A stretch of DNA of 64,000 nt, from the NCBI GenBank assembly GCA_016181175.1, contig JACOZV010000001.1, positions 182,185-246,184 on the forward strand, in the 5' to 3' direction. Below are positions 13,255 to 20,946 of this stretch, one piece after another. The DNA comes from Candidatus Yanofskybacteria bacterium (lineage in GTDB: Bacteria; Patescibacteriota; Minisyncoccia; 2-02-FULL-40-12; IGHO2-01-FULL-4-A). The notes beneath the pieces were generated by a model, which worked only from the letters and a program-made list of their open reading frames with translations, had not been told where the DNA came from and did not search any database. The translations under genes were made by a program, and so were the position numbers. How positions within the stretch are numbered: the first letter of the stretch is position 1; every line of letters starts with the position of its first letter.

Positions 13255-13980
13255 ATGGATTCAATTTTTGCAAAACTATTTTTATCCTTTGCTTCAATTT
13301 TGGGGGTCATTTCTGCACCGTCTTATATTCAATTAAGCACGGCCAGTGTTGTTTTTGATTACCAAACCGGGGATGGCAGGCCGCTTTACTATTTTAACCT
13401 CAAAAACATTGGGTCGCAAAAAGAAAGATTTGATGTTTCAGTAAATGTTCCTTGGATTTTTATTTCGCGCGAGGGTTACGACAATGTAACTTCTCTTTAT
13501 CTTGAAAGTGAAGGTGCTGTAAATTTTACACTTGATGTAAGACCGGAGATGGTGTCCGACGGCTCTTATATTGCCGAGATTTCAATTAAGGCAGTGGATG
13601 TCTATGATTATTCAGTCATAGAAACAAAGACGATTAATGTAACATTCAACAAAAATTTTGTTGCTACTCCCGTGCCTTCTGAAACTGTGACTCCAGCACT
13701 TTCAGTAACCCCGGCTTTATTAGTTTCTCCAGTTGTTTCGTTGACCCCGACCACGGTTCCTGCATTATCCAGTTCACCGTTATTTTCTCCGACCCCGAAG
13801 CTCTCACCCTCCGAAACTTCTCCGAAAATTTCTCCAATATCAACAACCAGTCCGCCCATTCAATTACGCAGTGCGGTTACACCTGTCCCAAGTCCTTCGG
13901 CAAGTTTACAGCCCAAAACTAGTCGGGCAATCTTGCCATTTATATCATTTTGGCAGTTCCTGAGAAATTTAATTTTCTAA
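13255..13980 (+). CDS. secreted protein with a Pro/Ser/Thr-rich C-terminus (start moved to the internal Met)
   Basis: The track ORF 13180..13980 begins inside the palindromic repeat. The Met at 13255 gives a signal-peptide-like N-terminus ('MDSIFAKLFLSFASILGVISAPS'). The C-terminus is 'PVPSETVTPALSVTP...' linker-like. Confidence 0.4.
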   Translation: MDSIFAKLFLSFASILGVISAPSYIQLSTASVVFDYQTGDGRPLYYFNLKNIGSQKERFDVSVNVPWIFISREGYDNVTSLYLESEGAVNFTLDVRPEMVSDGSYIAEISIKAVDVYDYSVIETKTINVTFNKNFVATPVPSETVTPALSVTPALLVSPVVSLTPTTVPALSSSPLFSPTPKLSPSETSPKISPISTTSPPIQLRSAVTPVPSPSASLQPKTSRAILPFISFWQFLRNLIF

Positions 13981-19125: not shown

Positions 19126-20946
19126 ATGCTGAATATAAGAGATAAAAAAATATGCATCATCATTTTAGTTGCCATCGGTTTTTTAGTCTACGCTTTTAAT
19201 TTGAATGGCCCGCTTTTTTGGGATGATGATGATTGGATAAAAGGAAATGTTTTTGTTCATGATTTCTCACACCTTAAAGAAATTTTTACCCAAAATATCC
19301 TTTCTGGTTTTGGTTTGAACAGCAATTATTACCGACCTCTACTTTTGTTAAGTTTTGCCGTCAACTATGCCATCGGAGGCATTAAACCGTTGGGTTACCA
19401 CCTGGTCAGCAATGGATTTCATCTTGCCAACGGGATCCTATTATTCCTCATTTTATTGGCCATTTTTAAACGGCGATTGCCGGCTTTCATTGCTGCCCTC
19501 TTATTTTTAATTCACCCGCTCCAGACCGAAGCTGTTACCTATATTTCGGGCCGCGGCGATCCAATGTCAGTGTTTTTCATGCTTCTCGCACTCTGGTTTT
19601 TTATCAAAGCCGAATCTTGCACGACATCGCAAGTCGTGCAGTTTCACAACCTGCGATGCCGTAAAAGTTGGTTATGGATTGGCGCTTCCTTGTTGTCTAT
19701 GGTTGCAGCTGTGCTAAGCCGCGAAACTGCCATTTTGTTGCCGCTTTTGTTGATGGTTTTTTACATAAGTTTTCTCACTAGTGGTGGTTTTTTGATGTCA
19801 TTGCGGACAGCATTTTTAAAAACATCATACTTTTGGGCGATCTCTATCGGTTACTTTGTTTTGCGTCTAACTGTTTTAAACTTTCAAAATACCCTCAATT
19901 TTTATTCCCAAGCCAGTGACTATTCCCAGCATTTAAGTTATCGGCTTTATACCTTTGGACACGTTCTTTTAGAATATTTTAAACTTATTTTTGTTCCAGT
20001 CGGGCTTCACATGGAGAGGGATTTACCGCTCAAGACATCTTTATTCCAATGGCCTGTTTGGCTTGCAGTGGTTATTGTGGTCTTAATTGTCTGGGTAGGA
20101 GTTGTGCTTTATAAGAAGGGAAGAGTTCTTAAATTAACGACATCGGATGCCGTTGCGACATCCGATGTCAGGATATGGTTTTTCGGTTGGTCATGGTTTT
20201 TTATTGGCCTTGCTCCTGTGTCAGGCATTATCCCGATTAATGCGGTGATGTATGAACACTGGCTGTATTTGCCATTGATCGGTTTATTTACTCTCATTGG
20301 CTTTTACTTGACTAAGGTATTTGACTATCTTAAATCCAAATCCCTTAATACTTACTACTTAATACTAGCTACTGCTTTCGTGATTTATGCTTCTTTCCTC
20401 GGCTATCAATCCATCAAGCGCAACATTCTCTGGGGCAAGCCGCTGGAATTTTATGAAGACATTCTGAAATATAATTCTAATACCGTGAGAATAATGAATA
20501 ACCTGGGTAATCTTTACTCTGAAAAAGGTGAGATTGGTAGGGCCGAGGAAATGTACACAAAGGCCATAGAGAGTCCAAACGGAAACATTTTTGCACAACC
20601 GCATTATAATCTTGGTAACATTTATAGAGACAGAGGTGAGACAGAAAGAGCCATTGAGCAGTATAAGGAAGCCATAAAAGCCGACCCTTCTTTTCCGTTT
20701 GCCTATCAAAACCTTGCGGTAATTTACGCGGGCCGCGGCAATTTGGTGGAAGCGGCATTGATGCTGGAGGAAGTCAAAAAACTCAAGCCCCAAGATCCAA
20801 GAGTTTATTATAATCTCGGGCTTGTTTACCTGGCCCAGAACAAAAAAGACTTGGCGTTGGAAAACCTGAAGACGGCTTTTGGGTTCTCGGCTGGTGATCC
20901 GGAGGTTGCCGCTGAAATTAGAAGAATTTTGGAGGTATTGGAGTAG
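19126..20946 (+). CDS. GT-C TMTC-like membrane glycosyltransferase with TPR repeats (paralog 3)
   Basis: 'GPLFWDDDDW' motif, multiple TM helices, C-terminal TPRs ('NLGNLYSEKGEIGRAEEMYTKAIE...'). It carries an in-frame copy of the 32-nt direct repeat at 20342..20373. Confidence 0.55.
   Translation: MLNIRDKKICIIILVAIGFLVYAFNLNGPLFWDDDDWIKGNVFVHDFSHLKEIFTQNILSGFGLNSNYYRPLLLLSFAVNYAIGGIKPLGYHLVSNGFHLANGILLFLILLAIFKRRLPAFIAALLFLIHPLQTEAVTYISGRGDPMSVFFMLLALWFFIKAESCTTSQVVQFHNLRCRKSWLWIGASLLSMVAAVLSRETAILLPLLLMVFYISFLTSGGFLMSLRTAFLKTSYFWAISIGYFVLRLTVLNFQNTLNFYSQASDYSQHLSYRLYTFGHVLLEYFKLIFVPVGLHMERDLPLKTSLFQWPVWLAVVIVVLIVWVGVVLYKKGRVLKLTTSDAVATSDVRIWFFGWSWFFIGLAPVSGIIPINAVMYEHWLYLPLIGLFTLIGFYLTKVFDYLKSKSLNTYYLILATAFVIYASFLGYQSIKRNILWGKPLEFYEDILKYNSNTVRIMNNLGNLYSEKGEIGRAEEMYTKAIESPNGNIFAQPHYNLGNIYRDRGETERAIEQYKEAIKADPSFPFAYQNLAVIYAGRGNLVEAALMLEEVKKLKPQDPRVYYNLGLVYLAQNKKDLALENLKTAFGFSAGDPEVAAEIRRILEVLE
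20342..20373. repeat. 32-nt direct-repeat element, family 3, in-frame copy in the GT-C gene 19126..20946
   Basis: cccttaatacttactacttaatactagctact (29/32 identical), encoding 'SLNTYYLILAT'. Confidence 0.6.

Follow-up and report, generated by a model that had tools for sequence, protein, structure and literature searches.

The DNA considered here is a stretch of 64,000 nucleotides (nt) from a groundwater Candidatus Yanofskybacteria bacterium (Parcubacteria/Patescibacteria), taken from the forward strand of contig JACOZV010000001.1 at 182,185-246,184; we call this stretch the window and count positions from its first letter. Within this low-GC DNA (guanine plus cytosine about 38-46%) lies a compact array of four plus-strand genes, g1 to g4, for large membrane proteins of the glycosyltransferase C (GT-C) class. 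Three of them, g1 (13980-15830; 616 amino acids [aa] from its ATG), g3 (17433-19124; 563 aa) and g4 (19126-20946; 606 aa, the most divergent paralog and an orthogroup of its own), encode GT-C enzymes of the TMTC family, similar to family GT105, in which a membrane domain of 11 transmembrane (TM) helices is joined to C-terminal tetratricopeptide repeats (TPRs). The fourth, g2 (15833-17422; 529 aa), encodes a PMT_2-family GT-C enzyme resembling GT39 and GT83, whose C-terminal 125 aa or so form a soluble domain. All four open reading frames (ORFs) lie back to back, as a preliminary description of this DNA had proposed, with intergenic gaps of 2, 10 and 1 nt. Two small genes stand immediately ahead of them: the ORF at 12543-13178 (sm211) is followed after 1 nt by sm266 (13180-13980), whose stop codon overlaps the start of g1 in the sequence TAATG. 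Given this overlap and the preceding 1-nt gap, the packed transcription unit probably runs from 12543 to 20946. In GenBank, g3 is labeled "tetratricopeptide repeat protein" and g2 "glycosyltransferase family 39 protein."

The proteins encoded by g1, g3 and g4 are paralogs (pairwise identity 27-34%), and profile comparison confirms that their entire membrane domain, with its 11 helices, is truly homologous to that of animal TMTC1-4 (CAZy GT105). The reference set consisted of the N-terminal domains of human TMTC1-4 and of fly TMTC1 and TMTC4, as aligned in the supplement of PMC7801869. A profile of the bacterial family, compared by hhalign with these animal proteins, aligned from TM1 to TM11 over 382 columns (probability 100%, E=5.3e-53, 24% identity), and g1 by itself aligned with a probability of 99.7%. 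Likewise, a hidden Markov model (HMM) of 429 positions built from animal TMTCs only scored g1 at 120 bits, g3 at 111 and g4 at 106 over approximately positions 4-428, the g1 alignment covering positions 10-428; neither g2 nor a second PMT_2 protein of the window (39231) gave a match to it. The three TMTC-like proteins with C-terminal TPRs of the preliminary description are thus borne out.

Pfam and NCBIfam scans of full-length g1, g3 and g4 returned TPR families alone, with the Pfam matches at the C-terminus (residues 427-600 in g1; strong in g4). Once the TPRs are removed, g3 matches PF08409 (TMTC_DUF1736) at 16 bits (E=0.012), short of the 27 bits set as gathering score, and that family is not matched by g1 or g4; the cutoff is missed because this short loop model of 75 positions is too divergent in the three proteins. 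In the wider family, PF08409 is found at E<=1 in 13 of 17 members (30-64% identity; best E=5e-12), and many homologs about 40% identical to g3 bear it as a precomputed annotation. Sequence searches of the PDB by phmmer and by profile were dominated by TPR proteins when full-length sequences were used, and gave no match with the TPR domain removed; no solved TMTC membrane-domain structure was found.

Motif conservation follows the same lines. In the TMTC family, the catalytic and ligand-binding motifs comprise a DD pair in loop EL1, (SHKS)YRP, a D/E in EL2 together with a K in EL3, and AER before TM10 (Eisenhaber et al., PMC7801869). The window paralogs have in common DD, YRP, H..N, P-I/L-x-T-E-A/S-V, L-S-K/R-E and E-R/H-W-x-Y, which in g1 appear as DD33/34, YRP, PIHTE, SKE and AERW. 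Across 36 bacterial homologs, D36, D37, R72, P73, P131, R143, E342 and Y346 are invariant, and conservation is 90% or higher at Y71, H133, E135, V137, S177 and R343, so that the catalytic and phosphate-binding residues of the TMTCs are kept as DD36/37, Y71-R72-P73, P131-I-H-T-E135-x-V, S177-K-E and E342-R343; the H/K of SHKSYRP is not conserved in this set. The DW motif in the loop that joins TM7 to TM8 (the DUF1736 loop) reads DY in g3 (D276-Y277), in keeping with a family consensus of SxDYSxNQ. Of the N-terminal signature G-x-F-V-[YG]-DD originally attributed to all three proteins, the g1 (GEFVYDD) and g3 (GKFVGDD) versions stand, and g4 instead reads GPLFWDDDD.

The helix pattern of AlphaFold 2 (AF2) models and the alignment to TMTCs agree on 11 TM helices, and the earlier count of about 10 is to be amended accordingly; some four to five TPRs follow TM11. 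Short loops rich in K/R map to the predicted cytoplasmic side, and the topology that we infer has the N-terminus inside; outside are the TPR domain and two loops, one bearing the catalytic DD and the other of DUF1736 type. Two of the coding sequences also hold in-frame, GC-rich palindromes, at 20139-20169 in g4 and at approximately 14460-14495 in g1. Their products are lineage-specific insertions, TSDAVATSDV in the g4 protein and ETARARSVPLSR in that of g1, which fall within loops on the predicted cytoplasmic side; in the homologs P0086, P0105, P0109 and P0116 the loops are interrupted at comparable places by unrelated insertions, and the g1 and g4 insertions resemble in-frame palindromic elements such as the Rickettsia palindromic elements (RPEs).

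The partner gene g2 belongs to a different branch of the GT-C enzymes. In Pfam its product scores 51.2 bits on PMT_2, where the cutoff is 26.1, and 34.2 bits on PMT, where it is 22.7, and the loop motif DE..H, on which its original placement in the PMT/ArnT clade was based, is present as SSDEIAH, with D34, E35 and H38 invariant in 27 homologs. In NCBIfam, solely sub-threshold matches to Agl23 and LA_3751 were obtained. The predicted fold is confident (predicted local distance difference test score 88), is of GT-C type, and comes closest to PMT and ArnT structures, with ArnT as close as Pmt4. At the sequence level, a profile of the 27 homologs found no PDB chain at E<=1, Pmt1, Pmt2, Pmt4 and ArnT included, and g2 has no MIR match in Pfam; the GenBank "family 39" label is for these reasons a loose one. 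The g2 subfamily is uncharacterised, and its C-terminal soluble domain is conserved (GG..NGYKYLDDSNIEWGQDLKRL).

At least 577 species genomes contain a relative of g2, and the best 80 loci (designated by L numbers below) were scored with family HMMs. One to five TMTC-like genes lie alongside g2 in 17 of the 18 loci in which it is at least 47% identical to the window protein, the exception being a contig of 2.7 kb. With BIG standing for the large surface protein encoded just upstream, GSDH for a beta-propeller gene downstream and GT2a for a candidate donor-forming gene (all described below), the recurring order is BIG, sm211, (sm266), TMTC genes around g2, GSDH, and later GT4(-), GT4, GT2a, GT4. 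Conservation is most extensive in L044 (g2 79% identical), where the gene order of the window is kept from a gene for a 1,066-aa protein as far as the second of the GT4 genes, except that a BIG-domain protein replaces the window's SH3 protein. The L001 contig carries as many as seven TMTC-like paralogs, and a GT2a homolog overlaps one of these genes. The pairing of TMTC-like genes with g2 extends to Desulfobacterales, Acidobacteriota, Clostridia and Terriglobia, and the Desulfobacterales locus L021 has the order TMTC, g2, TMTC, GT2a, TMTC. More distant g2 relatives (33-36% identity; many in Paceibacterota and Nealsonbacteria) had no TMTC neighbours among the scored loci, and the association is therefore one of this g2 subfamily, not of all PMT_2 proteins. 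As a separate observation, the Parcubacteria contig L004, whose locus has three TMTC-like genes, also encodes there, at 15732-18014, a 760-aa protein that combines Wzy_C (O-antigen ligase/O-oligosaccharyltransferase-like) with TPRs.

The TMTC-like genes of the array were initially thought to be tandemly triplicated; they prove to be old paralogs, each conserved in its own right, and did not arise by a recent triplication. The g3 and g4 types form separate orthogroups, with 41-62% identity across genomes and about 25-35% between paralogs; g4 orthologs are 43-62% identical in most related genomes and g4 is about 25% identical to g1 and g3, while L044 has one-to-one orthologs of g1, g3 and g4 at 78-82% identity. 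Retention of each of these old paralogs fits distinct specificities, and the conserved paralogs probably differ in acceptor or in sugar. The family to which they belong is very large, as a search with the membrane domain of g3 returned 40,996 clusters (50% identity) at E<=1e-3, and 12,888 at E<=1e-10.

On the donor side, the preliminary description had noted two DPM1-like GT2 genes, and both are present, with class assignments spanning DPM1, GtrB and ArnC and the second matching more weakly. The first, GT2a (29981-30688, plus strand; 235 aa), resembles polyprenyl-phosphate sugar synthases of the DPM1/AglJ/PgfS/ArnC class and is the candidate donor-forming enzyme; its best solved relative is the dolichyl-phosphate-mannose synthase of P. 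furiosus (5mlz; E=6.8e-24 over residues 1-207), followed by ArnC (2e-12). NCBIfam matches were to AglJ, PgfS, PpgS, dolichyl-phosphate-hexose transferase and ArnC. The second, GT2b (37394-38134, minus strand), is a weaker candidate of the same kind, matching 5mlz at E=6e-5, and AglJ and dolichyl-phosphate-hexose transferase in NCBIfam at 76 and 60 bits. Pfam GT2 scores are 120 bits for GT2a and 71 for GT2b. As all of the NCBIfam matches of the two proteins fall below equivalog cutoffs, no sugar is assigned. In L001 and L021, TMTC-like genes have a GT2a homolog directly adjoining or overlapping them.

Both GT2 genes belong to an envelope-glycan island (27614-44300) that holds seven GT4 genes, the two GT2 genes, a flavin adenine dinucleotide (FAD) oxidoreductase, RmlB, a PMT_2 GT-C protein, a Wzm/Wzt ABC exporter and a NeuB/PseI-like nonulosonic acid synthase. 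The PMT_2 GT-C protein of the island (39231-40928) has a YHEDE motif and is only remotely related to g2. RmlB (dTDP-glucose 4,6-dehydratase) is the sole nearby nucleotide-sugar enzyme above its equivalog cutoff. The Pfam name GDP_Man_Dehyd raised the possibility of a GDP-mannose enzyme at 38188; this was rejected, the protein being a dTDP-glucose 4,6-dehydratase at equivalog level. Scans of the window identified no mannose-specific gene, and nothing indicates mannose.

The genes around the array encode a set of surface proteins that are candidate acceptors. When 50 ORFs of the window were ranked by their richest Ser/Thr/Pro tract (residues per 40), six stood out, beginning at 13180, 4897, 24532, 21024, 12543 and 8734; these score 19-28 of 40, all others at most 16. 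All six flank the operon and have an N-terminal anchor or signal peptide, in accord with the earlier remark that the neighbourhood is full of secreted Ser/Thr/Pro-rich proteins. The first gene of the transcription unit, sm211 (12543-13178, plus strand), encodes 211 aa with a membrane anchor, a Ser/Pro/Thr linker (tract score 21/40) and a two-Cys domain of about 120 aa with a GPNIF motif. Sixteen related loci have a homolog, which in L001, L014 and L017 lies within the TMTC arrays themselves, and the layout of the family is fixed: behind the anchor comes a Ser/Pro/Thr linker, which varies, and then the two-Cys domain, which is conserved. The sm211 protein is a candidate acceptor or accessory subunit. 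The second, sm266 (plus strand; 266 aa as annotated), is an anchored candidate acceptor with the densest Ser/Thr/Pro tract in the window (28/40) and has homologs in L015, L016, L026 and L044. An inverted repeat of 19 nt at 13179-13261 (89% complementary, 45-nt spacer) spans the first 25 codons of the GenBank ORF, and initiation at the ATG at 13255 yields a proper signal/anchor peptide; the annotated start at 13180 is for this reason probably wrong and the repeat intergenic, which makes the originally proposed start at 13255 plausible.

Directly upstream of the operon, the plus-strand BIG gene (8734-12336) encodes an N-terminally anchored surface protein of 1,200 aa, of which Ser and Thr make up 21%; it too is a candidate acceptor. 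Full-length homologs precede the GT-C genes in L004, L016, L017, L020, L026 and L044, and truncated ones occur elsewhere. Neither sm211 nor BIG matched a Pfam family, and both are labeled hypothetical in GenBank. The N-terminal domain of BIG (about 140 aa, residues 43-185) recurs at E of about 1e-55 in differing secreted proteins of 300-740 aa that adjoin g2 and GSDH genes (loci L004-L014, L030 and L044); without a Pfam family of its own, it may serve all of them as a module for anchoring or wall binding. Downstream of g4, the SH3 protein (21024-22754, plus strand) is secreted, has a Pro/Thr-rich linker (tract score 25/40) and a C-terminal SH3 domain (SH3_3 in Pfam), and is a further candidate acceptor. 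It is followed by the N-terminally anchored GSDH/TrAA12-like beta-propeller (22787-24094, plus strand; Pfam GSDH, TrAA12 and DUF7133), a gene that adjoins the GT-C genes in 12 of the 80 loci, which are essentially all of the close relatives. Farther upstream, the anchored 1,066-aa protein (4897-8097) combines a lamin-tail domain, a Pro/Thr-rich linker (27/40) and a C-terminal PQQ-like beta-propeller; it is kept upstream of BIG in L004 and L044.

Two structured features lie between BIG and sm211. A GC-rich hairpin on the plus strand, CCAAAAACCGC-TTTCGG-GCGGTTTTTGG (12480-12507), was read by eye and could be a terminator, behind which the transcription unit of the GT-C genes would begin; a consensus terminator scan did not flag it. 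Ahead of it, in the spacer behind BIG, are nested palindromes at 12348-12440, GTCCCGATTT(T)GTCC ... GGACAAATCGGGAC with an inner GATGCCGAAGGCATC, which could represent a repeat element or a structured RNA.

What can be said of the function of this module? What is established is the fold of its enzymes and the families to which they belong, the conservation of their motifs, and the close packing and synteny of the genes. On these grounds we consider it fairly probable that the module carries out extracytoplasmic O-glycosylation of the co-encoded surface proteins from polyprenyl-phosphate sugars. A cytoplasmic GT2 enzyme of the DPM1/GtrB class would take a monosaccharide from a nucleotide sugar and attach it to polyprenyl phosphate, the lipid-linked sugar would be flipped across the membrane, and the GT-C enzymes would then, on the outer side, move the sugar to Ser/Thr of secreted or anchored proteins recruited by the TPRs. 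The likeliest acceptors would be the proteins with Ser/Thr/Pro linkers, namely sm211, sm266, BIG and the SH3 protein. The inferred parts of this scheme are the donor lipid with its sugar, the proteins that serve as acceptors, and the way in which the paralogs share the work.

Several observations weigh against the scheme. Fold and motifs prove a GT-C glycosyltransferase, not the class of its acceptor, and in g2 the tie between ArnT and Pmt4 means that protein and lipid acceptors cannot be told apart from the fold. The window proteins miss the DUF1736 cutoff, so that their link to the TMTCs rests on the full-length profile comparison, and the position of the DW motif reads SATYHFN in g1 and HMERDLP in g4, the motif being lost in both. 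The TPR domain of animal TMTCs has about 8-10 repeats, against the 4-5 found here. GT2a and GT2b lie 9-17 kb downstream of the GT-C genes, inside the glycan cluster, and no GtrA-type flippase was found among the scanned window proteins, short ORFs not having been examined for one. The module is consistently linked to a large GT4/GT2/RmlB/Wzm-Wzt glycopolymer cluster, and the literature searched held no experimental data on any bacterial TMTC homolog. Protein O-glycosylation is accordingly a candidate function, and the acceptor may instead be a glycopolymer.

This last possibility, in which the GT-C enzymes would decorate or extend a glycopolymer or lipoglycan outside the membrane, the polymer coming from the downstream GT4/GT2/RmlB genes and being exported by Wzm/Wzt, is the alternative to be taken most seriously, and we consider it unlikely while still according it appreciable weight. 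The block GT4(-), GT4, GT2a, GT4 stands behind the GT-C genes in L001, L004, L005, L012, L015, L017, L026 and L044, and in the window the block holds RmlB above its cutoff, Wzm/Wzt, the NeuB-like synthase and another PMT_2 GT-C protein. The resemblance of the g2 fold to ArnT would suit such a role, as would a sub-threshold match of g3 to the NCBIfam family named "cell surface glycopolymer formation protein." Lipoglycan assembly typically employs several GT-C paralogs in one pathway, and GT-C enzymes known to act on glycans include the polyprenyl-phosphate-mannose (PPM)-dependent mannosyltransferases of mycobacteria (lipomannan and lipoarabinomannan), YfhO/GacL (teichoic acids and rhamnopolysaccharides) and ArnT (lipid A). 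However, the nearest characterised relatives of g1, g3 and g4 are, by a wide margin (E=5e-53), protein O-mannosyltransferases, and their TPR domains are of a kind that usually binds proteins or peptides. Moreover, anchored Ser/Thr/Pro-rich proteins are encoded within the operon and within TMTC arrays, and in Desulfobacterales (L021) TMTC, g2 and GT2 genes occur without GT4 genes in the 9 kb of that locus.

It is very improbable that the TMTC-like proteins are instead non-catalytic TPR scaffolds or chaperones, for example for S-layers or pili, with a degenerate glycosyltransferase domain and g2 as the sole enzyme: the catalytic DD, the phosphate-binding Arg of AER and the other GT-C motifs are invariant or nearly so in the 36 diverse homologs and are shared with animal TMTCs, and this pattern points to selection on catalysis. 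Enzymes that transfer or polymerise preassembled oligosaccharides (O-antigen ligases, Wzy polymerases or PglL-type enzymes), of which the preliminary description had itself named the first two as placements that would refute it, would likewise be large polytopic proteins beside a polysaccharide gene cluster, and a separate Wzy_C and TPR protein is encoded on the related contig L004, but this reading is refuted and its likelihood negligible, as g1-g4 contain no Wzy_C (PF04932), even at E<=10 for the membrane domains, and the fold matches are to the GT-C enzymes Pmt4, ArnT, STT3 and AglB.

Protein O-glycosylation, the function that we favour, invites comparison with systems of known activity. 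Animal TMTC1-4 share with g1, g3 and g4 an 11-TM GT-C domain that is homologous from end to end (E=5e-53, 24% identity), TPRs at the C-terminus that face away from the cytoplasm (predicted here), the occurrence of several paralogs per genome, and the motifs DD, YRP, H..N...H, (H)P-I-H-T-E-A-V-x-x-x-V-G-R, K-E, N-P and A-E-R-x-x-Y-x-P-S-x-G. They differ in that the animal enzymes use dolichol as donor lipid, whereas in a bacterial host the donor would be an undecaprenyl-type polyprenyl phosphate; in that DW has become DY or been lost in the window proteins, along with the missed DUF1736 cutoff; and in that the window genes form an operon with a PMT_2 GT-C protein and candidate substrates, with no cadherin-type acceptors. 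The ArnT enzymes (GT83) are farther removed, since the sequence searches made with the g2 and TPR-free g3 families gave no match to them, they have no TPRs and their acceptor is lipid A, which would not be expected in cells of this lineage.

Bacterial parallels lie in pathway logic. In the actinobacterial Ppm1/Pmt (GT39) system, sugar from a polyprenyl phosphate is moved extracellularly to Ser/Thr/Pro-rich regions of secreted proteins (bioRxiv 10.1101/2023.08.23.554508). The window repeats this combination of a DPM1-like GT2, here a candidate donor enzyme, with GT-C proteins, one of which, g2, passes the PMT and PMT_2 models and has the DE motif; unlike the actinobacterial system, however, it has four GT-C proteins instead of one, the main ones being GT105-like, and g2 lacks a sequence-level match to the solved Pmt1, Pmt2 and Pmt4. 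GT105 is reported to be absent from actinobacteria (bioRxiv 10.1101/2023.08.23.554508). In streptococci, an undecaprenyl-phosphate-sugar synthase of family GT2 and a GT-C enzyme (GtrB/PgtC2, PgfS/PgfM1) O-glycosylate Ser/Thr-rich linkers of anchored proteins by adding monosaccharides, and the pgf cluster encodes substrates beside the enzymes (PMC12041528). Here too the logic is alike, and GT2a has a sub-threshold match to PgfS; however, PgtC2 and PgfM1 are YfhO-family proteins without TPRs, whereas the window enzymes belong to the TMTC and PMT_2 families, and Pfam scans of g1-g4 found no YfhO domain.

Prokaryotic TMTC homologs have been mentioned before (PMC7801869), as have prokaryotic GT105 homologs "to a limited degree" (bioRxiv 10.1101/2023.08.23.554508), and the JGI pipeline names one homolog "protein O-mannosyl-transferase." No characterised bacterial TMTC, DUF1736 or GT105 protein was found in the literature searched, in agreement with the earlier judgment that such bacterial machinery is poorly characterised, and a search for Patescibacteria O-mannosyltransferases and AZOBR_p60025 returned nothing specific. 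The window enzymes are new and uncharacterised members of a known family, and their mechanism is in all likelihood a known one; a conserved operon that unites several paralogs with a PMT_2 partner and candidate substrates gives a useful point of entry, not a new principle.

A more specific proposal may be put forward, which we regard as doubtful and offer as speculation on the sequence data. The TPRs would recognise folded or linker modules, such as the two-Cys domain of sm211, the N-terminal module of BIG and the Ser/Pro/Thr linkers; each paralog would serve one acceptor class, in the manner of TMTC1-4 and cadherins; and the module would be a prokaryotic counterpart, possibly an ancestor, of the eukaryotic TMTC pathway. 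Were this so, it would build a glycoprotein surface for the envelope integrity or attachment of ultra-small, probably host-dependent bacteria.

TMTC3 is tied to human brain malformation (PMC7801869), and compact bacterial homologs of about 560 aa, which share an operon with candidate substrates and a likely donor synthase, would be tractable models for the biochemistry and structure of the TMTC family. With about 41,000 clusters in the family and yet a GenBank label of "tetratricopeptide repeat protein," a widespread capacity for envelope glycosylation is under-annotated, and the locus singles out specific conserved surface proteins as probable glycoproteins in candidate-phyla bacteria.

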